Positions 4,126-58,034 of a stretch of DNA of 64,000 nucleotides are shown here, one piece after another. Location of the stretch: the NCBI GenBank assembly GCA_038087875.1, contig CM075991.1, forward strand, positions 5,890,001 through 5,954,000. The letters run 5' to 3'. The DNA is from Malacoraja senta (taxonomy: Eukaryota). Numbering within the stretch: position 1 is the first letter of the stretch; each line of letters starts with the position of its first letter. The translations under genes and the position numbers were made by a program. The notes below the pieces were generated by a model. That model saw only the letters and a list, made by a program, of their open reading frames with translations, had not been told where the DNA came from and made no database searches.

Positions 4126-5121
4126 ATGAAAAGTACATCTCCAGGTCAGAGCCCACAGAGGAAAATCTCAAAACATCTGCTGAAGACTCTGGAACAGCAA
4201 GAAACTTCAGAACTGACCTCTGGAGATGTCTCTGGAATGGCTACTCGATCTGCAAAAGAGAAAACCGAAATGGAGGACTTAAGAAACTCGGTAAGAGATA
4301 TCAAAAATGATATGGAAGCTGGGAACAGTAAATTGATAGCCGGTAATGATAAAATACTTGAGGGTATTGAGGCTCTCCAAAAAAGAATTGAAGGTGTGGA
4401 AAAAGGACTATCGATAAAAATTGAAAAGGTGGCAGAAGAGACCACAAAGATGTTTGAGGCTGTGCACGAAACTGTGGCTGCAAATGCATCTGCAGTGAAT
4501 GATTTGGAAGCTGTTGTGGAAGTGATGGCTGGAGAGATGCAGACTATGAAGTCAGAAATAGATAGTCTCAAGAACCAAGTCACAAAGGTTTCGAATAAAT
4601 GTGTTGACCTAGAAGCTCGCTCAAGACGCCAAAATATAAGAATACGTGGTGTAAAAGAGGGAGCTGAGGGGGACAATGTTTGTGAGTTCGCTGCCAACCT
4701 AATTAAACACGTACTGAAGCTACCAGAAGTACCTGTAATTGAAGTAGCACATCGACTCCCCAGATTTAAATCAAGATCTCAAGGAGAACGTGCCTACCCA
4801 CGACAGATCATAATTAAACTTCGGGATATCTCAACAATGGAAGCGCTGATGAAAAAAATCAACCACGGAGAGAAGATGATGTACAGAGGTGATACTATTA
4901 AACTCCTACGGGACTACCCTTATGAGATTGAGCAAAAGAGAAGAAAGTTCTCACAGACCAGAGAAGTTCTTTATGGTGTTAAGGGAGTTTTGTGTGGAGT
5001 GTTTTATCCGGCTAGAATGCGTATCACCTTTGAGGGAGTGTCAAAAACATTCACTAATTCGGATGAATCTCTCAAATACGCTCAAGAAATCGCGACTAAG
5101 GCTGCATCAACTGGAGATTGA
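4126..5121 (+). CDS. L1 ORF1p (coiled coil + RRM + CTD), 331 aa
   Basis: Heptad coiled coil followed by DLEARSRRQNIRIRGVKEG, IEVAHR, PRQIIIKL, FYPARMRI: L1 ORF1 (transposase_22-like) motifs. Confidence 0.95.
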   Translation: MKSTSPGQSPQRKISKHLLKTLEQQETSELTSGDVSGMATRSAKEKTEMEDLRNSVRDIKNDMEAGNSKLIAGNDKILEGIEALQKRIEGVEKGLSIKIEKVAEETTKMFEAVHETVAANASAVNDLEAVVEVMAGEMQTMKSEIDSLKNQVTKVSNKCVDLEARSRRQNIRIRGVKEGAEGDNVCEFAANLIKHVLKLPEVPVIEVAHRLPRFKSRSQGERAYPRQIIIKLRDISTMEALMKKINHGEKMMYRGDTIKLLRDYPYEIEQKRRKFSQTREVLYGVKGVLCGVFYPARMRITFEGVSKTFTNSDESLKYAQEIATKAASTGD

Positions 5122-6026
5122 AAACCAAGACGACATGAACAAACGAACTTGCTTATTCTTCCAACAAGAGTATCACAAGGAAAGTGAATTAACTGAACAC
5201 TGATTTTTTATTTTTTATTTGACTTCAAGCAACAGATTCTTAGTGAGACGTGGCTAGACATTATTATCTTCGCTGGAACATTGTGCTATGTAATTCAAGG
5301 ACACTACGTGCTCAAACGAGGAAAACCTGATAACACGGGACGAACTGCTGGGCTGAGAGTGAAAAACATCACATGGCTTATATTGTTTATAAAAAACTGA
5401 AAAAACAGAGAACTAATAATAATTAACAATTAACAATACTAATATAGAAATAGCAATTGAAATAGATAAAAAATGTGCAGTCTGCTCTGTTTAGCAGATA
5501 ACAGCAAGTGCTATGCAGCTCGAGAGTGGAGGGAGGGGGAGACCGGGTACCTGGCATAACTCCAGGAGCCAGACTCCCGTTAACCCTTCCAGCGAACAGC
5601 TCATTTTTAACAATATTAAAATCAATTTAAAATAGTTAAGAGATAATATACACTCGAGGTTGATATGAAAAATATATACGGCTTATATAGTTTTACAAAA
5701 TGCTGAGAATTAATCATAATTAATAATTAACAATACTAATATAGAAATAATATTTGAAACTGATAAAACTGTGGTGCCTGCGTCATAACGCAGACAGCAG
5801 TTATCACCTATGTTCGCAGCTCGTGGAGAGGAGAGGAGATCAGGCACCTGGCACAATTCCAGGAACCTGACTCCGGTTAATCCACTCAGTAAACCGCTCA
5901 CTTTAACAATACTAAATTCATTTTAAAATAGTTAAGAGATAAAGAGTGAGTAGGATATGGAATCGAATACATTTGACATATATATAAATTGTAACTGGGT
6001 GAAATAGAACTGAATTGGAAACGGTA

Positions 6027-6347
6027 ATGACCCCAGAGATTTTGGGTAATAAATACAGCGGGGCTAACTTTATACCAACTACGCCGGAAGCGTTATGGAT
6101 GTCGTACCCCACAGACGAGTGGGCCACTCACTACGGTGTTGAAATTTTAGACACCGTAAATTTATTTGATTTATATATATTTTTTTTAATCACAATATGT
6201 CACATCTGTGTGTTTTTTCTTCAAGGACAATCGCGCAGGAGAACTACCAAGGAAGTCTATAATAGAAATACTCCCAAAATAACCAGAGTCCGGAGGTATG
6301 AACGCACCACAATAATTAAGGTCATTAAAACTGGTAAAAATGCATGA
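6027..6347 (+). CDS. Putative L1 spacer-encoded small membrane protein (106 aa) overlapping the ORF2 start
   Basis: Open frame ATG6027-TGA6347 with hydrophobic LFDLYIFFLITICHICVFFL followed by SRRR; positional homologues in the other two L1s (see findings). Confidence 0.5.
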   Translation: MTPEILGNKYSGANFIPTTPEALWMSYPTDEWATHYGVEILDTVNLFDLYIFFLITICHICVFFLQGQSRRRTTKEVYNRNTPKITRVRRYERTTIIKVIKTGKNA

Positions 6348-9300
6348 CGACAATCAAAAGAAAATAGGAGGAATCACATTATGTAGTTGGAATATAAGGG
6401 GGATTAATGAACCTATTAAAAGGGGCAAGATACTAGCTCAGTTGAAATCATACAACACGGACATTGCGTTTCTACAGGAAACACATCTTAAACAGCAAGA
6501 TCAGACAAGACTGAGGGCGAACTGGATAGGCCAAACATTTCACTCTTCATTTACCTCCAAATCTAGAGGTACTGCAATTATTATTCGTAAAGGAATTCCA
6601 TTTAAATCAAAGAACACTATTTTAGATAAGGAAGGGAGATATCTTATAGTAGCAGGGGAGATCAATAATATGCCAATTACGCTGGTAAACATATATGCGC
6701 CCAACTTTGATAACCCTCAATTTTTTAATAAAATTCTGAATATAATTGCAGAATCTAATTATCAAAATGTTATAATCGGAGGAGATTTTAATTGTGTTTT
6801 AGATCCTTATTTAGATAAATCGATGCAAAAACAAAAAGGTCAGACGAAATCTAAAACCAGTGAACTCTTACACACATATATGGAAAACACAAATATAACA
6901 GATGTATGGAGGATTGCAAACCCGACGGGAAGGGATTACTCGTTTTATTCAATGGTGCATGAAACATATTCACGGATAGACTATTTTCTTGTGGATACAA
7001 AATTAATTTCGCAATCTCTGAATCCTAAATATCATATTAATGCGATCTCAGATCATTCTCCGTTAACTTTTGTTCTAAAACTAGAAGGAATGTCTATGAA
7101 TAAACCGTTCTGGAGGTTTAACTCACAAATTTTAAAAGACCCTCAAGGGAGTATCTATCTAAAAAAACAGATGGATCTATTTTTTGAGTTAAATGATACA
7201 CCAGAGATATCCCCCACGTTATTATGGGAATCCTTCAAAGCATTTATAAGAGGAGTCATTATTTCATTTCAAGCTTATCAAAATAAAAAGAATAAGAATG
7301 AACAAAGACACTTAGAAGATCAAATAAAACAGTTAGATATAGATAATGCTAAAGACCCAACTATGGATAAACATAATAAAATACTACTACTGAAATTTCA
7401 GTTAAATAAATTACTGTCAGAGAAAGTTATAACATTATTTCAAATCACAAAACAAGAACACTTCGAATTCGGGGACAAACCCCACAAACTTCTAGCACGA
7501 CAACTTAAAAAACGGGAAAAAGAGAATGCAATATTAAAGATTAAATCAGATAGAGGGGAAGTATTAACACTACCCAAGGATATTAATAAAAGATTTGCTC
7601 AATTTTACCAGAATCTATACACATCTAAAACGTCAATAGACAATAATAAAATCTCAGAATTTTTAGATAATTGTAATCTACCACAATTAGAACGCAGGGA
7701 ACAAGAGGAACTGGGAGCACAAATTACTTCTAAGGAGATAGAAGACACAATAAAAACACTAAAAAATGGAAAAACACCAGGACCAGACGGATTCAGTAAT
7801 GAATTTTATAAATCTTTTTATGATATAGTTACTCCACGATTACAAAAAATGTATACATATGCTTATAAAGAGCAAAACCTACCTGAAACACTAGCGGAAT
7901 CAACGATCATATTAATACTTAAAAAAGATAAAAATATAGAAGAACCAGGATCATATAGAGCTATTGCTTTGTTAAATACGGATCAGAAAATAATAGCAAA
8001 AACATTAGCCAATAGATTAAGCAAGTATGTTAGTAGACTAATACATGAGGATCAAACAGGATTTATACCTAAGAGACACTCATTTAATAATTTGAGACGT
8101 TTGCTTAACATAATGCATTCACATAAATCTTATGACCAAGAGTTAGCTATCATCTCACTGGACGCAGAAAAAGCGTTTGATCAAGTAGAATGGGACTATA
8201 TGATCAAAGTATTGCAAAAATTCCAATTGGGAGAAAACTTTATTGCATGGATAAAACTACTATATAACAAACCTACGGCTAGAATACTAACTAATAATAT
8301 ATTATCTTCAAAATTCGAATTATCTAGGGGCAACAGACAAGGATGTTCACTATCACCGCTGTTATTTGCTTTGGTAATTGAACCCCTTGCTGAAAAAATA
8401 AGAACACACTCGAATATTCACGGTTATAACACAAAATATTCAAACAACAAACTATCCCTATATGCTGATGATGTACTACTGTACATCACAAAACCACAAA
8501 TTAGTATACCAAATATATTAAACTTAATTGAGGACTTTGGATCCTTTTCAGGATATAGAATAAATTGGAACAAAAGTGAAATTATGTCGATTAAACCAAA
8601 AGACTCAACACATCTCAGGAAATTCCCTTTTAAAATAGCTATGGAAAAATTCAAATATTTAGGAATTGAGATTACTAGAAATTACCATGATATGTTTAAA
8701 GCTAATTATAATCCCCTACTTAAGAAATTAAATAATCTGATTAAATTTTGGAAAACACTTCCGATGTCCTTAATAGGTAGGATAAATGCTATAAAAATGA
8801 TTTTCTTACCACAAATCCTTTACCTATTTCAATCATTACCTATATATCTCCCAAAAAAGTTTTTCAAAAAACTGGACTCAGACATTACAAATTTTATATG
8901 GGATTACAAATCCCACAGAATACAAAGAACACACCTTAACAAACGAAAAGAGTTGGGGGGTCTAGCGCTCCCTAACTTTATGTATTATAACTGGGCAGTA
9001 AATATTAAAAATATGATTCACCTGCTGGACAATTCTGCCCAGCAGGTGGACTGGATTATAATGGAAAAAGGGGATTGCTCCCCGAATAATATAGGAGCGA
9101 TTATTCTCTCTCCAATAAATTTGAATAATAAAAATTATAATAAAAATCCAATTATATATAGCACTATTAGAACATGGAAGCAAATAAAACAGAATCTAAA
9201 ATTAAGAAACCTATCTCTCTTAATACCAATAGTCAATAACCCATCGTTTAAACCTTCAATCATAGATAAAGCATTTATACAATGGGAAAGAATGGGAATT

Positions 9301-10131
9301 AAAACGCTCGAAGATCTGTATGAATTAGAAAAATTACTATCATTCCAACAACTACAACTGAAATATAATTTGAAAAATAATCAATATTTTAAATATCTAC
9401 AAATCTGTGACTATTTGAAAACACACACAAAAGATTATTATAATATGCCTTCCGACTTACTAGATGAAGCAATGAAGACAAAGGCGGAATCAGTTAATTT
9501 AATATCATACTTATATAATATCATCTTAAATATAGAAATACCCACAACAGATGGAATTAGAAGAGATTGGGAACAAGATCTAGGTATAAAAATTTCAAAA
9601 GAGAGTTGGGATAATCATTTATTACAGGTGCATAAATGCTCGATCAACGTACGACATACGCTTATCCAATTTAAAACATTACATAGATTATATTATTCAA
9701 AAACCAAACTAAATAAAATCTTTCCTAACGTCTCACCAATCTGTGATAAATGTATATGTCAAGAAGCTACCATAGCACATTCTTTTGTTTTTTGTACAAA
9801 AATCCAAAAATTCTGGTTTGAAATATTTGATATTTTTTCAAAATTAATCAAAATAAAACTGGTACCAAAACCAGAATGGATTATTTTTGGAATATCGGAA
9901 GGTATTCCTGAATTAAACGTGTATCAGAAGAATTTACTCAATTATGGGCTAATAATGGGAAAAAAGCTTATACTTAAATTCTGGAAAAATGCGCCCACAC
10001 CAACAATAAAAATGTGGACATCAAATATGTTGGAAACATTACATCTGGAAGAGATGAGATTCCTCCTAGTAGGCAAAGTAGATCAATTTCAAAAGACGTG
10101 GTCTACGTTTTTGGACCTATTACAAGCATGA
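6340..10131 (+). CDS. L1 ORF2p (APE endonuclease + RT + CCHC), 1263 aa, uninterrupted
   Basis: SWNIRG, LQETH, GGDFN, SRIDY, SDH (EN); PGPDG, LDAEKAFD, RQGCSLSP, YADD, FKYLG (RT); CDKC-x8-H-x4-C. Confidence 0.98.
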   Translation: MHDDNQKKIGGITLCSWNIRGINEPIKRGKILAQLKSYNTDIAFLQETHLKQQDQTRLRANWIGQTFHSSFTSKSRGTAIIIRKGIPFKSKNTILDKEGRYLIVAGEINNMPITLVNIYAPNFDNPQFFNKILNIIAESNYQNVIIGGDFNCVLDPYLDKSMQKQKGQTKSKTSELLHTYMENTNITDVWRIANPTGRDYSFYSMVHETYSRIDYFLVDTKLISQSLNPKYHINAISDHSPLTFVLKLEGMSMNKPFWRFNSQILKDPQGSIYLKKQMDLFFELNDTPEISPTLLWESFKAFIRGVIISFQAYQNKKNKNEQRHLEDQIKQLDIDNAKDPTMDKHNKILLLKFQLNKLLSEKVITLFQITKQEHFEFGDKPHKLLARQLKKREKENAILKIKSDRGEVLTLPKDINKRFAQFYQNLYTSKTSIDNNKISEFLDNCNLPQLERREQEELGAQITSKEIEDTIKTLKNGKTPGPDGFSNEFYKSFYDIVTPRLQKMYTYAYKEQNLPETLAESTIILILKKDKNIEEPGSYRAIALLNTDQKIIAKTLANRLSKYVSRLIHEDQTGFIPKRHSFNNLRRLLNIMHSHKSYDQELAIISLDAEKAFDQVEWDYMIKVLQKFQLGENFIAWIKLLYNKPTARILTNNILSSKFELSRGNRQGCSLSPLLFALVIEPLAEKIRTHSNIHGYNTKYSNNKLSLYADDVLLYITKPQISIPNILNLIEDFGSFSGYRINWNKSEIMSIKPKDSTHLRKFPFKIAMEKFKYLGIEITRNYHDMFKANYNPLLKKLNNLIKFWKTLPMSLIGRINAIKMIFLPQILYLFQSLPIYLPKKFFKKLDSDITNFIWDYKSHRIQRTHLNKRKELGGLALPNFMYYNWAVNIKNMIHLLDNSAQQVDWIIMEKGDCSPNNIGAIILSPINLNNKNYNKNPIIYSTIRTWKQIKQNLKLRNLSLLIPIVNNPSFKPSIIDKAFIQWERMGIKTLEDLYELEKLLSFQQLQLKYNLKNNQYFKYLQICDYLKTHTKDYYNMPSDLLDEAMKTKAESVNLISYLYNIILNIEIPTTDGIRRDWEQDLGIKISKESWDNHLLQVHKCSINVRHTLIQFKTLHRLYYSKTKLNKIFPNVSPICDKCICQEATIAHSFVFCTKIQKFWFEIFDIFSKLIKIKLVPKPEWIIFGISEGIPELNVYQKNLLNYGLIMGKKLILKFWKNAPTPTIKMWTSNMLETLHLEEMRFLLVGKVDQFQKTWSTFLDLLQA

Positions 10132-12559: not shown

Positions 12560-14520
12560 ATGGAATATCCAGCAATTTACTACATAGCCGGCACTTTCTA
12601 CCCTGTACTTGTGGCGGTTGGTATTCCTGGTAAGATACTGGGACGAGTAGGTTTAGTTTTGTACAGAAAAACTGCGCGGAAAGAGGCCCTTCGATCAACC
12701 GAGTCCGCGCCAACCAGCAATCCCCGCACACTGACGGCACACGCTAGGGACAATTTACAATTGTACCAAGCCAATCAGCCTACAAACCTGTGCATCTTTG
12801 GAGTGTGGGCGGATACCGGAGATCCAGGAGAAAAACCCAAGAAGATCACGGGGAGAATGTACAAACTCCGTGCAGGATCAAACCCGGGTGGTTGGCGCTG
12901 TCAGGCAGCACATTTAACGCTGCGCACCGTGCCGTACTGCGTGCAGTTCTCCTTCCTTTCTGTATCTGCTGCTCTGAAGAATAGTCGCTTTGATACCCAG
13001 CCCAGATGCTGCCTCAGCTGACGAGTGTCTTCGGAAGGTTCAGGCTTCAGCGTCTGTTTTATTTCTGGCATTTTGTTCTTATTAATGTGTGGTTCTTTTG
13101 TCAATCGGGTCAGTTAATTTAGAGCTAGTGTTTACATTTTTTCAGCATGTAACCGTATTCAAATTGTTTCTGGCGCATATTCTTCAAGCTCCGGGTCTCA
13201 TTAATACAGACTTTTCCACCAAGATTCAGCGAATGAGAAATGTATACATGTCTGTCAACATGCCTGTTGAATTATCACAACTAGCTGAAACACCTTCCGG
13301 GTTTTCGTTCTCTGATTCATTTGCCAGTTTTGATTTTATGACTGCGTTTCGACTTGCTACGTCTGATATGTCGGAGGAAGCAGTTCTCCCTGATTCTAAT
13401 GCTCTCTGATACAAGCTCATTTCGATTGACGCAACGACTCGAAATGACTGAGGTAATCAGTGCGTCGTAGACTTTAGGAGGCCGACTGTAAATTGCTGCA
13501 AATTACCGACACATCTGCCTCTTCGATCAGCACCGCTCTAAGTATTTCTCCGAACGGAAATTTAGTAAACTGGATCAGGTTTTTGCTCATTGAAACTAAC
13601 GTTCTATTTTGTTTCTTGCAGTTAATTTAACGGCGATTGTGATCCTCTCCCGGGGAAAATGTGGTCTCTCCAAATGCATCACCCGTTACCTAGTGGGAAT
13701 GGCAACAGCGGATCTAATGATAGTTGTCATTGTTGCTGCAATTGAAAAAGTTAATAACATACACGTTTACGCTCGTTCCTTGTTCATTACACCGGTTTGC
13801 GCTCTGACACTAATACTAAGTGTAATAACAATCGACTGTTCCGTTTGGTTCACCGTCAGTTTCACTTGCGATCGTTTTATGGCGATCTGTTGTCAAAAGC
13901 TACGTAAGCGCTACAGCACCGAGAGAGCAGCGTGTGTGATTATGGTGACTGTGGCTGTCGTCAGCTGCGCCCGATCGTTTCCCTTTTACTTTGCCGTGGA
14001 GCCTGCTGTCATAATTGACAATGTGCCTTGGCGTTGCGTCTTCTCAGAGGAGTACGCCACTTTGTCGGAATGGAAAGGTTATGAGTTACTTGACAGCATC
14101 TTAGCACCGTTGTTACCTATCGGTTTAATCCTGTTGTTCAATGGGTTAACTTGCAGACATATCATAGCGGCCAATAGAGTTCGCAGACGACTTCGGAACA
14201 GCCATGAGAACCAGAAAGATACAGAGGTGGAGAACCGGAGAAAATCGATGATTTTGCTCTTCGCTGTATCAGGCAATTTCATATTATTTTGGATACCCTA
14301 TGTGGTTCATTCTCTGACATGGCAAGCACGTAATTTCTTTTACATCGATAGATATTTGAGCAACCCGGTATTTATCCTGCAGCAGTTTGGATATATGTTT
14401 CAGGTTCTCAGTGTGTGCACAAACACGTGTATCTATACACTGACACAGAGGAAATTCAGGGAGGAGCTGAAGAGTGGAGTGAAATATCTACTCACATTGA
14501 ATGGCCGATTATGTAGTTGA
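12560..14520 (+). CDS. GPR139-like: GPR139-like orphan class A GPCR, copy 1; exon 1 12560-12629, exon 2 13622-14520; about 322 aa
   Basis: Phase-1 intron CCTG|GTAAG..TTGCAG|TTAAT joins MEYPAIYYIAGTFYPVLVAVGIP to VNLTAIVILSR (TM1 GxxxN). ADL in TM2, TCDRFMAIC (DRY-like), TM5 LP, TM6 FWIP, TM7 NTCIY..KFREEL. Short N-terminus and intron within TM1 as in the GPR139/GPR142 family; AATAAA at 14556-14561. Paralogue-level call only. Confidence 0.88.
12648..12934 (-). mobile_element. tRNA-derived V-SINE (HE1-like) in the GPCR intron
   Basis: Minus strand reads CGGCACGGTGCGCAG..CCCGGGTTTGATCC (A/B boxes), V-domain GGAGTTTGTACATTCTCCCCGTG..TCCAAAGATG and a CR1-like tail; present in all three introns. 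Confidence 0.75.
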
Positions 14521-29686: not shown

Positions 29687-31646
29687 ATGGAATATCCAGC
29701 AATTTACTGCATAGCCGCCACTTTCTACCCTGTACTTGTGGCGGTCAGTATTCCTGGTAAGATACTGGGACCAGTACGTTTAGTTTTGTACAGAAAAACT
29801 GCGCGGAAAGAGGCCCTTCGATCAACCGAGTCCGCGCCAACCAGCAATCCCCGCACACTGACGGCACACGCTACGGACAATTTTCAATTGTACCAACCCA
29901 ATCAGCATACAAACCTGTGCATCTTTGGAGTGTGGGCGGATACCGGAGATCCCGGAGAAAACCCAATAAGATCGCGGGGAGAATGTACAAACTCCGTGCA
30001 GGATCAAACCCGGGTGGTTGGCGCTGTCAGGCAGCACATTTAATGCTGCGCACCGTGCCGTACTGCGTGCAGTTCTCCTTCCTTTCTGTATCTGCTACTC
30101 TGAAGAATAGTCGCTTTGATACCCAGCCCACATGCTACCTCAGCTGACGAGTGTCTTCGGAAGGTTCAGGCTTCAGAGTCTGTTTTATTTCTGGCATTTT
30201 TTTCTTGTTAATGTGTGGTTCTTTTGTCAATCAGGTCAGTTAATTTAGAGCTTATGTTTACATTTTTTCAGCATGTAACCGTATTCATATTGTTTCTGGC
30301 GCATATTCTTCAAGCTCTGGGTCTGATTAATACAGACTTTTCCACCAAGAGTCAGCGAATGAGACATGTATACATGTCTGTCAACATGCCTGTTGAATTA
30401 TCACAACTAGCTGAAAAACCTTCCGGGTTTTCGTTCTCTGATTCATTTGCCAGTTTTGATTTTAGGGCTGTGTTTCCACTTGCTAGGTCTGATATGCCTG
30501 AGGAGGCAGTTCTTTCTGAGTTTAATGCTCTCTGATACGAGTTCATTTCGATTGACGCAACGACTCGAAATGACTGAGGTGATCAGTGCATCGTAGACAT
30601 TAGGAGGCCGGCTGTAAATTGCTGCAAATTACCGACACATCTGCCTCTTCGATCAGCACCGCTCTAAGTATTTCTCCGAACGGAAATTTAGTAAACTGGA
30701 TCAGGTTTTTGCTCATTGAAACTAACGTTTTATTTTGTTTCTTGCAGTTAATTTAACGGCGATTGTGATCCTCTCCCGGGGAAAATATGGTCTCTCCAAA
30801 TGCATCACCCGTTACCAAGTGGGAATGGCAACAGCGGATCTAATGGTAGTTGTCATTGTTGCTGCCATTGAACAAGTTAATAACATATACGTTTACGCTA
30901 GTTCCTTGCTCATTACACCGGTTTGCGCTCTGACACTAATACTAAGGGTTGTAACAATCGACTGTTCCATTTGGTTCACCGTCAGTTTCACTTGCGATCG
31001 TTTTATGGCGATCTGTTGTCAAAAGCTACGTGAGCGCTACAGCACCGAGAGAGCAGCCTGTGTGATTATGGTGACTGTGGCTGTCGTCAGCTGCGCCCGA
31101 TCGTTTCCCTTTTACTTTGCCGTGGAGCCTTCTGTCATAATTGACAATGTGCCTTGGCGTTGCGTCTTCTCAGAGGAGTACGCCACTTTGTCGGTATGGA
31201 AAGGTTATGATTTACTTGACAGCATCTTAGCACCGTTGTTACTTATCGGTTTAAACCTGTTGTTCAATGGGTTAACTTCCAGACATATCATAGCGGCCAA
31301 TAGAGTTCGCAGACGACTTCGGAACAGCCATGAGAACCAGAAGGATACAGAGGTGGAGAACCGGAGGAAATCGATGATTTTGCTCTTCGCTGTATCAGGC
31401 AATTTCATATTATTTTCGATACCCAATGTGGTTCATTCTCTGACATGGTAAACACGTAATTTCTTTTACACGGATAGATATTTGAGCAGCTCGGTATATA
31501 TCCTGCAGCAGTTTGGATTTATGTTGCAGATTGGCAGTATATGCACAAACACGTGTATCTATAAACTGACACAGAGGAAATTCAGGGACCAGCTGAAGAG
31601 TGGAGTGAAATATCTACTCACATTGAATGGCCAATTATGTAGTTGA
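29687..31646 (+). pseudogene. GPR139-like: GPR139-like GPCR copy 2; exons 29687-29756 and 30748-31646; premature TAA at 31449-31451 removes TM7
   Basis: Colinear with copy 1; CAA>TAA after TM6. Also GKC>GKY, YLVG>YQVG, TM5 LP>LL and FWIPY>FSIPN. Original TGA retained at 31644-31646. Confidence 0.88.
29775..30060 (-). mobile_element. HE1-like V-SINE in the intron of GPCR copy 2
   Basis: Same intron position and sequence as 12648-12934. Confidence 0.72.
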
Positions 31647-34800: not shown

Positions 34801-36910
34801 TGTTCCTGTTGTGTAATTTGGAATAGTCTTATTACTCTTGCTGATAAAATTCGATTAAGTTTAAATTTCAGTAACATTATCTTATTATGTTTATCTGTAG
34901 TGGAATCTTTGGCATTATCTAACTCTAACTGTCTAATTTCTTGTTCTAACAGCATTTGTTCTGTCTTATTCTTTATATTTTGAAAAATTTGATATGAAAT
35001 TATAATTCCTCTAATAAATGCCTTTAAAGTTTCCCATAATAAAGAAGGCGAAGGACCTGGTGTATCATTTGTCGCCAAAAAAAAATAAATTGTTGTTTTA
35101 AGAATTGATAACCTTGTAAGTCATTTAAAATATGTGTATTAAACCTCCAAAAAAAGATTTTACCCGGCATTCCCTCAAATTTTACTGAAAATGTCAACGG
35201 AGAGTGATCAGAAATACCACTAATGTGGTATATTGGATTAATTGTATATGGCATTCATTTCATATCCACTAAAAAGTAATCAATTCTTGAATAAGTTTAT
35301 GTACCAAAGAGTAAAACGAGTATTCCCTTCCTACTGGATTAGCAGATCTTCATACATCTGTTATATTAGTATTTTTTATATATGTATTTAGAAGTTCACT
35401 AGTCTTAGATTTTAAATTACTCCTCCTTTGTTTTACTGATTTGTCTAAGTATGGATCTAACACACAGTTGAAGTCACCCCTATTATCACATTTTGGTAAT
35501 TAAACTCTAATATGATATCTATAATTTTACCAAAAAAATTGGGGGTTGTCAAAATTCGGAGCGTAAATATTGATCATAGTTAGTGGGGTTGCATAAATTT
35601 CTCCCGAATCTATAATATACCTTCCCTCTTTATCTGATATAGTATTCTTTAATTTGAAAGGTATACCTTTTCGAATATGAATAGCCGTACCTCTAGATGT
35701 GGAAGTAAATGACGAATAGTATGTTTGACCTATCCACTTCGCCTTTAATCTCATTTGTGTTTGTTGTTTCATGTGGGTTTCCTGTAAAAACATTATGTCG
35801 CTTTTCAAAGATTTTAGTTGAGCAAAAATGTTACCCCTCTTTATTGGTTCATTGGCACCCGTTATATTCCAACTACAGAATGTGATTCCTCCATTCTTTA
35901 TTTGTCTATCGTCTTGCATTATATATCAAAATAGTATTCCTGAATCATATGGTGCAAGCAAATACCTCAGAGTTATGGGTGTTGGGTGGTCATCCCAAGT
36001 TTTTAGATTTATATTACATCTCCTTCTTGAAAAGTACCTTAATAAAAGAGAGAAAAAATGTGATATAAAGTTGAATACAAACAAAATAAGCAAATACAAG
36101 TCTTTCTAGTGATTTAAAAAAAATAGTGATGTTAAGGTATCTAACAAAAGATACCTTAAAGGCAAGTAGCCACCTAAGGTGGCGAAACATTTATGGACTT
36201 CCGTTGATGTTGTTTTACATTGAGCTCCAATCCCTTAATAAAACCTCATAAAAAGCTACAGACCGTTTCATATCTTATTTATTCTTATTTAATTTTATCA
36301 AACTGGCACCAGTGAAAACAGAAAACATTCAGACAAAAATATTTTAAAGAATATATATATATATAAATATAAGTATATATGCCTTTCCAATTTATCTAAC
36401 CTTAATCTAGTCTAAACTTTACCATAAATGTCCACCCAAGATTCTTACGTAATTCTTACCCATCCTTTAACTACCATACAAGCAGGTACCAAGGGGTTAA
36501 ACAAAACCTAATTCCTGGATCTTTTCCAGGTTTATGCTGCGCCTAACTCCTTCCCACACCAGAAAAGTAGGTTAGTAATGTTATAAACATTTTGCTTGGT
36601 TACTATTTATAAGCATATATAATTTATAAGTATATATCATTAATATTAATTCATTTCCCTTTTTGAATATATAAAATCATAATTATATACACTCCCATTA
36701 TCTCCTTCCCCGTCTCATGGTTTATTCATGATTTGTTCATTTTACTACATACATTCACGAGTAATTAGTATTATTAAATTTGTTAAAATAATTGGTTAAT
36801 TATAATTAGAATATAATGGTTAGATATTTTCTTAAATCAACAGTTTTTATATTCCAATTAGTATTATCTCGTTCCATGTCCATTATACATTCCCTCATTA
36901 CTTCTGTATC
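31872..36910 (-). mobile_element. Degenerate 5'-truncated LINE-1 (L1-C): ORF2 from 35919 plus spacer, no ORF1
   Basis: Frameshifted ORF2 pieces (SWNITG, LQETH, SDH, QGCALSP, YADD, CDKC); A-rich 3' end abutting the GPCR copy 2 3' flank; 5' end approximate and no TSD found. Confidence 0.92.
35906..36249 (-). pseudogene. Disrupted spacer micro-ORF of L1-C
   Basis: MRFY*GIGAQCKTTSTEVHKCFATLGGYLPLRYLLLDTLTSLFFLNH*KDLY...SRRRC...RYLLA..IL(frameshift)..NARR*; aligns codon for codon with the L1-B spacer ORF. Confidence 0.55.
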
Positions 36911-40700: not shown

Positions 40701-41598
40701 TTAAAGGTTTCCCATAATAGCGATACAGAAATACCCGGCGTATCATTTGTCTCGAAAAAAAATGGTGTTTCTTCTTTTATATACTCATAACCCTGCGGGT
40801 TATTTAATATTTGTGCTTTGAATTTCCAAAAAGATTTTATACCCGGCATTCCCTCGATTTTAAGTATAAAAGTCAGTGGTGAATGATCGGAAATAATACT
40901 ATTATGATATGATGGTTTAATTGTATACGGGATTAATTTTGTATCCACTAAGAAATAGTCAATTCGTGAATAAGTTTTATGAGGCGACGAGTAAAACGAA
41001 TATTCCCTTCCAATTGAGTTTGCTATTCTCCAAACGTCAGTTATGTTATTATTTTTTATATAAGTATTTAAAAATTCACAGGTCTTAGTTTTAACTAGAC
41101 GCTTCCCTACCTTTATTGATTTATCTAAGTATGGATCTATAACACAATTAAAATCTCCCCCATTATAATATTTTGATAATTATGCTCTGCAATTATATCT
41201 AGTATTTTCTTAAAAAATTGGGGATTATCAAAATTAGGCGCATAAATATTTATCATAGTTAATGGTGTATTGTAAATTTCTCCCGTGACTATAACGTATC
41301 TTCCCTCTTTATCAGATATGGACTTCTTTAATTTAAAAGGTATACCTTTCCGAATTATAATGACCGTGCCTCTTGCTTTAGAAGTGAATGAGGAGTAGTA
41401 GGTTTGACCTATCCAGTTTGCCCTTAATCTGATCTGCGTTTGTTGTTTCAAATGCGTTTCTTGTAGGAAAGCAATATCAATGTTTAATGATTTTAATTGT
41501 GCCAGAATTCTACCCCTCTTAATTGGCTCATTCGCACCTCTAATGTTCCAACTACAAAAAGTGAGACCTCCGGTGTTTATTCGACTATTATCTTGCAT
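37796..41598 (-). pseudogene. L1-B ORF2, with frameshifts, a stop and YADD>YADH
   Basis: Fragments 41598-41137, 40948-40181, 40180-39338 and 39229-37796 are colinear with L1-A ORF2. Confidence 0.93.
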
Positions 41599-41932
41599 TG
41601 GCTATTATTACCAGAATGTATAATTCATGTGATGCAGCCAAGTACCTCGAAATCCCGAGTCCAGGGTTGTCCTTCATAATTTCTGCACTAGTTTTACATC
41701 TCCTGACACTATTAAACATAATTAAGGGAAAAAGAAAAACATAAAATGAAGTGTTCATAAAGATTGTTAAATCATACAACGCATAATAGTGAATAAACAA
41801 AAAAAGTGAATGTAAGTTATCAAAAAGGCGATATCTTACAAAAAAGCCACCTACGGTGGCTAAGATTTGTTTTAAATTGACCTCCGTCGATGGAATTATG
41901 CACTGGGCTTTGTCCCCCTAGTAAAATATCAT
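41588..41932 (-). CDS. Putative L1-B spacer micro-ORF (114 codons, in-frame TAG at codon 5)
   Basis: MIFY*GDKAQCIIPSTEVNLKQILATVGGFFVRYRLFDNLHSLFLFIHYYALYDLTIFMNTSFYVFLFPLIMFNSVRRC...RYLAA..ILVIIANAR*; overlaps the ORF2 ATG at 41598. Confidence 0.5.
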
Positions 41933-56073: not shown

Positions 56074-58034
56074 ATGGAATATCCAGCAATTTACTACATA
56101 GCCGCCACTTTCTACCCTGTACTTGTGGCGGTTGGTATTCCTGGTAAGATACTGGGACGAGTAGGTTTAGTTTTGTACAGAAAAACTGCGCGGAAAGAGG
56201 CCCTTCGATCAACCGAGTCCGCGCCAACCAGCAATCCCCGCACACTGACGGCACACGCTAGGGACAATTTACAATTGTACCAAGCCAATCAGCCTACAAA
56301 CCTGTGCATCTTTGGAGTGTGGGCGGATACCGGAGATCCCGGAGAAAAACCCAAGAAGATCACGGGGAGAATGTACAAACTCCGTGCAGGATCAAACCCG
56401 GGTGGTTGGCGCTGTCAGGCAGCACATTTAACGCTGCGCACCGTGCCGCCCTGCGTGCAGTTCTCCTTCCATTCTGTATCTGCTGCTCTGAAGAATAGTC
56501 GCTTTGATACCCAGCCCAGATGCTGCCTCAGCTGACGAGTGTCTTCGGAAGGTTCAGGCTTCAGCGTCTGTTTTATTTCTGGCATTTTGTTCTTATTAAT
56601 GTGTGGTTCTTTTGTCAATCGGGTCAGTTAATTTAGAGCTAGTGTTTACATTTTTTCAGCATGTAACCGTATTCAAATTGTTTCTGGCGCATATTCTTCA
56701 AGCTCCGGGTCTCATTAATACAGACTTTTCCACCAAGATTCAGCGAATGAGAAATGTATACATGTCTGTCAACATGCCTGTTGAATTATCACAACTAGCT
56801 GAAACACCTTCCGGGTTTTCGTTCTCTGATTCATTTGCCAGTTTTGATTTTATGACTGCGTTTCGACTTGCTACGTCTGATATGTCGGAGGAAGCAGTTC
56901 TCCCTGATTCTAATGCTCTCTGATACAAGCTCATTTCGATTGACGCAACGACTCGAAATGACTGAGGTAATCAGTGCGTCGTAGACTTTAGGAGGCCGAC
57001 TGTAAATTGCTGCAAATTACCGACACATCTGCCTCTTCGATCAGCACCGCTCTAAGTATTTCTCCGAACGGAAATTTAGTAAACTGGATCAGGTTTTTGC
57101 TCATTGAAACTAACGTTCTATTTTGTTTCTTGCAGTTAATTTAACGGCGATTGTGATCCTCTCCCGGGGAAAATGTGGTCTCTCCAAATGCATCACCCGT
57201 TACCTAGTGGGAATGGCAACAGCGGATCTAATGATAGTTGTCATTGTTGCTGCAATTGAAAAAGTTAATAACATACACGTTTACGCTCGTTCCTTGTTCA
57301 TTACACCGGTTTGCGCTCTGACACTAATACTAAGTGTAATAACAATCGACTGTTCCGTTTGGTTCACCGTCAGTTTCACTTGCGATCGTTTTATGGCGAT
57401 CTGTTGTCAAAAGCTACGTAAGCGCTACAGCACCGAGAGAGCAGCGTGTGTGATTATGGTGACTGTGGCTGTCGTCAGCTGCGCCCGATCGTTTCCCTTT
57501 TACTTTGCCGTGGAGCCTGCTGTCATAATTGACAATGTGCCTTGGCGTTGCGTCTTCTCAGAGGAGTACGCCACTTTGTCGGAATGGAAAGGTTATGAGT
57601 TACTTGACAGCATCTTAGCACCGTTGTTACCTATCGGTTTAATCCTGTTGTTCAATGGGTTAACTTGCAGACATATCATAGCGGCCAATAGAGTTCGCAG
57701 ACGACTTCGGAACAGCCATGAGAACCAGAAAGATACAGAGGTGGAGAACCGGAGAAAATCGATGATTTTGCTCTTCGCTGTATCAGGCAATTTCATATTA
57801 TTTTGGATACCCTATGTGGTTCATTCTCTGACATGGCAAGCACGTAATTTCTTTTACATCGATAGATATTTGAGCAACCCGGTATTTATCCTGCAGCAGT
57901 TTGGATATATGTTTCAGGTTCTCAGTGTGTGCACAAACACGTGTATCTATACACTGACACAGAGGAAATTCAGGGAGGAGCTGAAGAGTGGAGTGAAATA
58001 TCTACTCACATTGAATGGCCGATTATGTAGTTGA
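56074..58034 (+). CDS. GPR139-like: GPR139-like GPCR copy 3; exon 1 56074-56143, exon 2 57136-58034; about 322 aa
   Basis: Exon 2 translation identical to copy 1; exon 1 differs by G11A; GT/AG sites intact. Confidence 0.88.
56162..56448 (-). mobile_element. HE1-like V-SINE in the intron of GPCR copy 3
   Basis: Duplicate of 12648-12934. Confidence 0.72.

Follow-up and report, generated by a model that had tools for sequence, protein, structure and literature searches.

In mammalian L1 retrotransposons the translation of ORF2 is proposed to be coupled to an upstream ORF, and the peptide of that ORF is not what matters for the coupling. Termination-reinitiation has been proposed for mammalian L1, SART1 and caliciviruses (PMC5972666); for mammalian L1, as excerpts of three reports present the work of Alisch 2006 (PMC5972666, PMC5381506, PMC4072516), ribosomes ending a nearby upstream ORF reach ORF2, the upstream ORF being ORF1 and the spacer 63 nt long. 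Longer spacers are also on record. Megabat L1 has a long intergenic region with small ORFs, and removal of the spacer AUGs in a megabat-spacer chimera lowered retrotransposition 3.3-fold (PMC4072516); the long pig L1 spacer is described, in the part of the report consulted, without a frame of the kind presented below (PMC6501411). In the consulted portion of a further report, long spacers are treated as non-coding, reinitiation over such a distance is called inefficient and risky, the translation of ORF2 is stated to be an open question, and dicistrovirus-like IRESs in the 3' part of the intergenic region of vertebrate L1 are predicted and proposed as drivers of ORF2 (PMC5381506). Stop and restart lie within a few codons in the TURBS of caliciviruses and influenza B and in the UAAUG of SART1, where the upstream ORF encodes a functional protein and, for SART1, structure 3' of the overlap is needed (PMC5972666). 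As for extra L1 ORFs, the excerpt consulted gives only antisense ORFs and ORF0, a short frame that is antisense, located in the 5' UTR and specific to primates (PMC5203782).

Here we report a leader frame in the ORF1-ORF2 spacer of seven related L1 families (A-E, H and I), extending for 82-101 codons from an ACG or AUG site to a stop near the ORF2 AUG. The frame is open, has a constant 5' register and end point, contains two hairpins and lacks peptide conservation. Judging from sequence comparison, we put at about one half the probability that the last 255-292 nt of the spacer are a cis-acting leader ORF which would deliver ribosomes to ORF2 by termination-reinitiation. The likeness to mammalian L1 is that ribosomes would come from a nearby upstream stop; in contrast to the mammalian case, the ORF1 stop is 0.9-1.2 kb distant, and its place is taken by a separate frame that often starts with ACG and runs over the hairpins. 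Megabat L1 shares a long spacer whose AUGs aid activity, but a frame, start site or structure conserved across families, all present here, is not described in the consulted part of that report (PMC4072516). In families A and I the junction AUGCAUGA is a close overlap like those of TURBS and SART1, whereas the UGGGA motif is not conserved here: within 80 nt, exact UGGGA occurs in two of nine representatives (I at -48, D2 at -79), CGGGA in three and neither in four. The predicted IRESs resemble the present case in being structured RNA in the spacer, but they were predicted sequence by sequence within 10 nt of the ORF2 AUG and, as far as the consulted text goes, with no shared structure (PMC5381506), whereas the hairpins described here covary across families, lie inside the open frame and are placed 170-270 nt 5' of the ORF2 AUG. 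Literature searches, limited to sources other than subscription journals and Repbase reports, gave no account of a frame of this kind or of the hairpins.

The window, that is the whole stretch of 64,000 nt analysed, belongs to an assembly of 1.94 Gb and contains the copies L1-A, L1-B and L1-C, whose ORF2 N-termini are about 75% identical. L1-A (forward strand) consists of an ORF1 of 331 aa at 4126..5121, with only weak, coiled-coil-type matches in Pfam, a spacer of 1218 nt with 14 AUGs at 5122..6339, and an intact ORF2 of 1263 aa at 6340..10131; at least 150 copies are identical over the leader frame. L1-B and L1-C (reverse strand) are broken copies within a tandem duplication whose unit measures about 45 kb (44-46 kb), and because L1-B sits in this duplication, the 30 B loci fetched include 16 array duplicates. 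Families D and E were collected with the B frame as a protein query, which favours open frames (20 matches fetched out of 150), and family C by a frame-blind DNA search. Families G, H and I and old F and J copies came from an ORF2-based search (20 of 150 fetched), the H loci thus sampled from copies with a long or intact ORF2, and 14 further I loci came from a DNA search (out of 40 listed).

The leader frame of L1-A (6081..6347, +) has a candidate ACG at 6081, an in-frame AUG at 6099 and a TGA at 6345-6347 that overlaps the ORF2 start. That of L1-B (41588..41887, -) runs from ACG 41887 to TAA 41590-41588, with an upstream TAG at 41920 and the ORF2 AUG at 41598; that of L1-C (35926..36204, -) runs from ACG 36204 to TGA 35928-35926, 9 nt before the ORF2 AUG at 35919. 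Read from a single aligned site, the frame meets no early stop in 29 of 30 loci of A, in 13 of 14 dispersed loci of B (and all 16 array duplicates), in 12 of 14 of D, 5 of 6 of E, 2 of 3 of H and, as counted from translations, 12 of 15 of I, but it is open in only 3 of 20 C loci. Relative to the ORF2 AUG the stop lies at +6 in A and I, +9 in B and D2, +12 in D1 and -9 in C, E and H, so that an upstream stop is found next to the downstream AUG throughout, the arrangement by which termination-reinitiation is judged. Family I has an AUG-started frame of 87 codons with the same terminal junction as A. The other two frames contain 1-10 stops each across the leader stretch, and the longest stop-free run elsewhere in the spacer is 67 codons in A and 37 in B. 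Five of six indels among B-E are multiples of three, as is the net loss of 30 nt in H. Eight old F and J loci, with runs of 5-143 codons near ORF2, were uninformative.

In dinucleotide shuffles, a run of at least 85 codons ending near the ORF2 AUG was obtained in 40-170 of 5000 trials per family (seven families). When neutral evolution was simulated on the fitted tree (length 2.8), not one of 2000 runs left every tip open, with any of the three taxon sets; in simulations of nine single pairs the frame stayed open in 15-87 of 4000 runs, all of these simulations being run with no indels and one open copy per family. Thus, families C and K excepted, the frame is open beyond chance, and the conclusion is that selection keeps it open. 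Since it is selectively open, the spacer is probably translated, as far as sequence can tell, and is not simply non-coding, which upholds one half of what an earlier note on the window had proposed; the other half, a conserved membrane protein, is unsupported.

That note, made from the letters of the window, had placed a third ORF at 6027-6347 (+) and in the spacers of L1-B and L1-C. In the window itself this is a stop-free AUG frame of 106 codons which ends 8 nt inside ORF2. It owes its existence solely to a GAG in the window copy at a codon that is TAG in the family: the family version is a three-codon ORF ending in TAG (6027..6038, +), the TAG at codon 4 is present in 28 of 30 A loci, position 6036 is T in all four sequencing contig sets read, and G is present there in no copy other than that of the window and a single duplicate. 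Among the 150 best-scoring A copies, 148 have the frame open for 102 codons and not 114. B and C have a stop at codon 5 of the same frame, with CAG in its place in 4 of 30 B loci. AUG 6027 was therefore rejected as the start, and while an open frame does exist, a conserved protein started at that AUG is not a feature of the families. The codon-for-codon alignment of L1-B and L1-C, with indels of +6 and -3, is real, and the TAG at 36108 is, as had been suggested, a lesion private to L1-C, being absent from all 20 other C loci. The 1-nt deletion in L1-C had likewise been read as decay after insertion, but all 20 other C loci, 5 of 6 E loci and all 3 H loci carry it, and in the loci that share it the frame closes at the TGA 9 nt 5' of the ORF2 AUG.

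Constraint on the amino acids is indistinguishable from neutral, an outcome that the earlier note had itself named as counting against its proposal. In-frame pN/pS is 0.56-0.92 and falls within the values from shuffled nucleotide columns in all seven family pairs, so that no synonymous excess was seen in these pairs, while the first 125 codons of ORF2, used as a control, gave 0.15-0.20. A first NG86 table (omega 0.36-0.97) was superseded by this shuffle-controlled test because other frames scored as low. Codon phase at nine nucleotide anchors differs between I and B/D at five, between A and B/D at three and between A and I at two, the first two anchors being in phase in all nine representatives; these anchors were used in place of whole-alignment phase (A and I against the rest, 19-36%), which overstates the shifts because the aligner misplaces some gaps. 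Families A and I thus read the same nucleotides in other frames by way of compensating frameshifts, and the homologous bases are not kept in one frame in all families, as a conserved third ORF would have them; the motifs that the earlier note found common to A and B/C are in part a coincidence of frame. In family I some 110 nt, including the whole hydrophobic stretch, are read in another frame and spell a different peptide, and the register proposed earlier meets a stop in 12 of 15 I loci. B-E and H keep a single frame over 95-100% of aligned bases. Frame-breaking indels, which the earlier note had named as a test of its proposal, do separate families, yet they cancel out, and therefore a role in cis is indicated.

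The hydrophobic stretch follows from a U-rich tract (about 6160..6222, + in L1-A, limits approximate), for the peptide of family I is still hydrophobic there although the tract is translated in a different frame, and hydropathy falls in H, E2 and E3. A 19-residue segment is commonly judged against a hydropathy threshold of 1.6. On this scale, which is not a dedicated predictor of transmembrane segments, the value exceeds 1.7 in A, B, C, D, E1 and I and is 1.26-1.45 in H, E2 and E3, so that a hydrophobic segment is not a property of all families; H, shorter by 30 nt, has lost most of it. Pfam gave no family above cut-off for the six leader peptides tested, the P0001 query gave no match at E<=0.1, and there was no usable match in Atlas and none among viral contigs. 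Profile searches returned one related cluster and one unrelated repeat protein, and a metagenome scan returned two loci, one of them L1-like and apparently truncated just 5' of ORF2.

RNAalifold applied to ten B-E copies predicted two hairpins, with changes on both sides of pairs, beneath the ATxGG and RY..DTL motifs. They are located at 6108..6123 and 6132..6158 (+) in L1-A, at 41845..41861 and 41811..41840 (-) in L1-B and at 36169..36183 and 36132..36159 (-) in L1-C. With A, I and H added, 78 of 81 cells of hairpin 2 are paired and three positions are changed on both sides (two in hairpin 1); L1-A alone has two compensatory pair changes in hairpin 2 relative to B-E and H. Single-sequence folding gave z below -2.9 in eight of nine representatives and -1.3 in A. 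The frame of families A and I crosses the 5' arm of hairpin 2 in the phase that gives TAA in B-E; a compensatory change turns this triplet into TAC, so that structure and frame are both kept. Dicistrovirus IGR IRESs have three pseudoknots immediately 5' of the first codon; Rfam gave no match at E<=1 for the six loci searched, and the hairpins lie downstream of the candidate start. Synonymous divergence is below that of ORF2 (B-C pS 0.43 vs 0.68). The 5' motifs that had been taken for peptide conservation are accounted for by the hairpins and the hydrophobic stretch by the U-rich tract; this alternative, raised in the earlier note itself, holds for those features, and leaves the openness of the frame standing. 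About 45-60 nt before the ORF2 AUG (alignment columns 322-338) there may be a third, short hairpin in which some of the pairs are changed.

Hairpin 1 begins 21-27 nt after the candidate start. ACG can initiate translation. The triplet before GAA/GAG is ATG in all 15 I loci and ACG in all 30 B loci; it is ACG in 6, ATG in 11 and GCG in 1 of 18 parsed C loci, ACG in 11, ATG in 1 and ACA in 2 D loci, and ACG in 4 and ATG in 2 E loci, a mixture that is only suggestive because CpG decay can turn ACG into ATG. In A the ACG at 6081 (30 of 30 loci) stands one codon 5' of the triplet aligned with the ATG of I, and an out-of-frame AUG in strong context at 6095 precedes the in-frame AUG at 6099. Position -3 is occupied by a pyrimidine in B, C, D2, E2 and H. 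A downstream hairpin can aid the choice of a weak or non-AUG start, with its stem about 13-17 nt from it in the excerpt consulted (PMC2001202).

Other ways into the frame were considered. In D and E an AUG-started ORF of the -1 frame (MKR.., about 43-65 codons) extends across the start of the leader; it is interrupted in C, and in B and D its end, TTT TGA, falls within the hairpin 2 loop. In a Logan cluster of four proteins an upstream MKR AUG frame is joined in frame to the same leader. A programmed +1 shift at TTT TGA fits B and D, but the frame is interrupted in A and C, and it would be a minor entry route only. Readthrough from short AUG ORFs is unlikely, as the type and place of the stop vary by family and C mostly has TAA TAA. 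A splice acceptor at the 5' edge of the leader is disfavoured by sequence, the AG phases disagreeing between families; no clean GT..AG joint was found in the four sequencing contig sets, which has no bearing on splicing or expression. In family I a further frame, headed by an upstream AUG of its own and closed 12 nt 5' of ORF2, is nearly open; 3 of 15 loci have it uninterrupted, and in two of these the main frame is lost.

Not all families keep the frame. In C, 12 of 20 loci are interrupted at codons 27-29, within the T/A run that follows hairpin 2, eight of them sharing one TGA together with other variants; as the loci were compared without flanks, these stops may reflect old duplicated copies or an amplified stop-bearing master. 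For the older group K, register across the T/A run, counted from coordinates only, was standard in 19 and shifted in 14 and 7 of 40 loci (15, 12 and 13 of 40 in a second search), and 2 of 9 K loci, fetched with a query that favours a frameshift, were open from the start site. The spacer of family G is unrelated and contains a variable (TA)n and poly-C tract. There the three frames stop at -9, -5 and +23, so an AUG frame, 69-134 codons long, extends to the ORF2 start whatever the length of (TA)n, as it does in 8 of 8 loci; in a test made after the data had been seen, these features were only moderately rare in shuffles (367 and 111 of 5000). Older copies of C, E, I and K have repeatedly turned part of the T run after hairpin 2 into an A run of near-constant length, giving TAA, and old family J has an in-frame stop one codon 5' of its ORF2 AUG.

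It is well supported that the young families carry a selectively open, peptide-neutral leader over conserved hairpins, and the sequence comparisons indicate that selection acts on continuity from a constant start to a stop beside the ORF2 AUG and not on the peptide. In the reading we prefer, ribosomes would initiate at the ACG or AUG about 21-27 nt 5' of the two hairpins, which may help in choosing that site, would translate the 82-101 codons with little relevance of the peptide, would stop no more than about 14 nt from the ORF2 AUG and could then reinitiate at it, the leader stop standing in for the ORF1 stop 0.9-1.2 kb away. Candidate routes to the leader start are internal entry, a spliced or internally started RNA, and a relay of short ORFs. 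In its favour we count, besides the frames kept open in A, B, D, E, H and I, the AUG frames of G, the Logan cluster and the 3.3-fold loss of retrotransposition in the megabat-spacer chimera (PMC4072516). Against ribosome delivery we count the 3 of 20 open loci in C and the mixed register of K, the collection of D and E with a query that favours open frames, the lack of a conserved UGGGA, hairpins placed beyond 13-17 nt, the displaced ACG and the out-of-frame AUG at 6095 in A and the pyrimidines at -3. The same facts also suit an overlapping ORF that represses: leader ribosomes would be removed at or past the ORF2 AUG, keeping ORF2p low, and ORF2 would be made by ribosomes that skip the ACG. 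An out-of-frame overlap of the main AUG is the usual layout of a repressive uORF, and the frame overlaps the ORF2 AUG in this way in A, B, D and I; openness without peptide conservation is explained equally well, and loss in C and K would be tolerated. We nevertheless consider repression unlikely, as the stop is held at -9 to +12 nt in all seven families with no drift into ORF2, access to ORF2 past 14-20 spacer AUGs is left without an account, and removal of AUGs from the megabat spacer lowered activity and did not raise it, as far as the excerpt reports (PMC4072516).

That the spacer acts as RNA only, for example as an IRES for ORF2, with the open frame a by-product of hairpins, U-richness and inheritance, is somewhat harder to credit. 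The compensated and almost fully paired hairpin 2, the low z values, the lowered pS, the mostly broken frames of C and K and the IRESs predicted beside ORF2 in long spacers (PMC5381506, consulted in part) are all consistent with it, but with the hairpin region frozen neutral pairs still remained open in only 77-258 of 4000 runs (nine pairs), the other two frames are interrupted over the same stretch, and the B-E indels and the net loss in H respect multiples of three. Least probable to us is a membrane micro-peptide that needs only a hydrophobic segment followed by basic residues and so tolerates frameshifts. The hydropathy of A, B, C, D, E1 and I, the basic residues that follow in most, and the single frame of B-E and H would suit such a peptide; the missing synonymous excess, the loss of most of the segment in H, hydropathy below 1.4 in E2 and E3, the different peptide over about 110 nt in I and the lack of a Pfam family in all six tests speak against it, and the conserved single-pass protein of the earlier note, which asked for more, is not supported.

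The locus offers a base-level hypothesis for ORF2 translation over a long spacer, consisting of a start site, two covarying hairpins, a frame and a stop. It further provides a clear example from nature in which the continuity of a reading frame is selected and its peptide is not, and it cautions that membrane micro-proteins are mimicked by U-rich spacers. A wider proposal, which we regard as doubtful though worth stating, is that non-mammalian L1s with kilobase spacers use a dedicated peptide-neutral third ORF, with a hairpin-assisted ACG/AUG start, continuity-only selection and compensating frameshifts, reinvented in the unrelated spacer of G; this may have been the mode of ancestral vertebrate L1s, with direct coupling of ORF1 to ORF2 taking over once the spacer was lost in mammals.

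Some further observations concern the copies themselves. By eye, the L1-A spacer contains an imperfect internal duplication of about 220 nt, at about 5420-5640 and 5700-5930, 5' of the leader. Second copies of the B leader region at C15:5879038-5879364 and C1302:110966-111292, about 2.4 kb from the main copy, suggest a local duplication inside some L1-B copies. The tandem duplication is seen over window positions 1-64000, on C15 at 5.65-5.93 Mb and on C1302. Among the array matches L1-A occurs at a single place on C15 and a single place on C1302, and it therefore looks like an insertion later than the array. The duplicated unit also bears receptor-like genes, at 12560-14520, 29687-31451 and 56074-58034.
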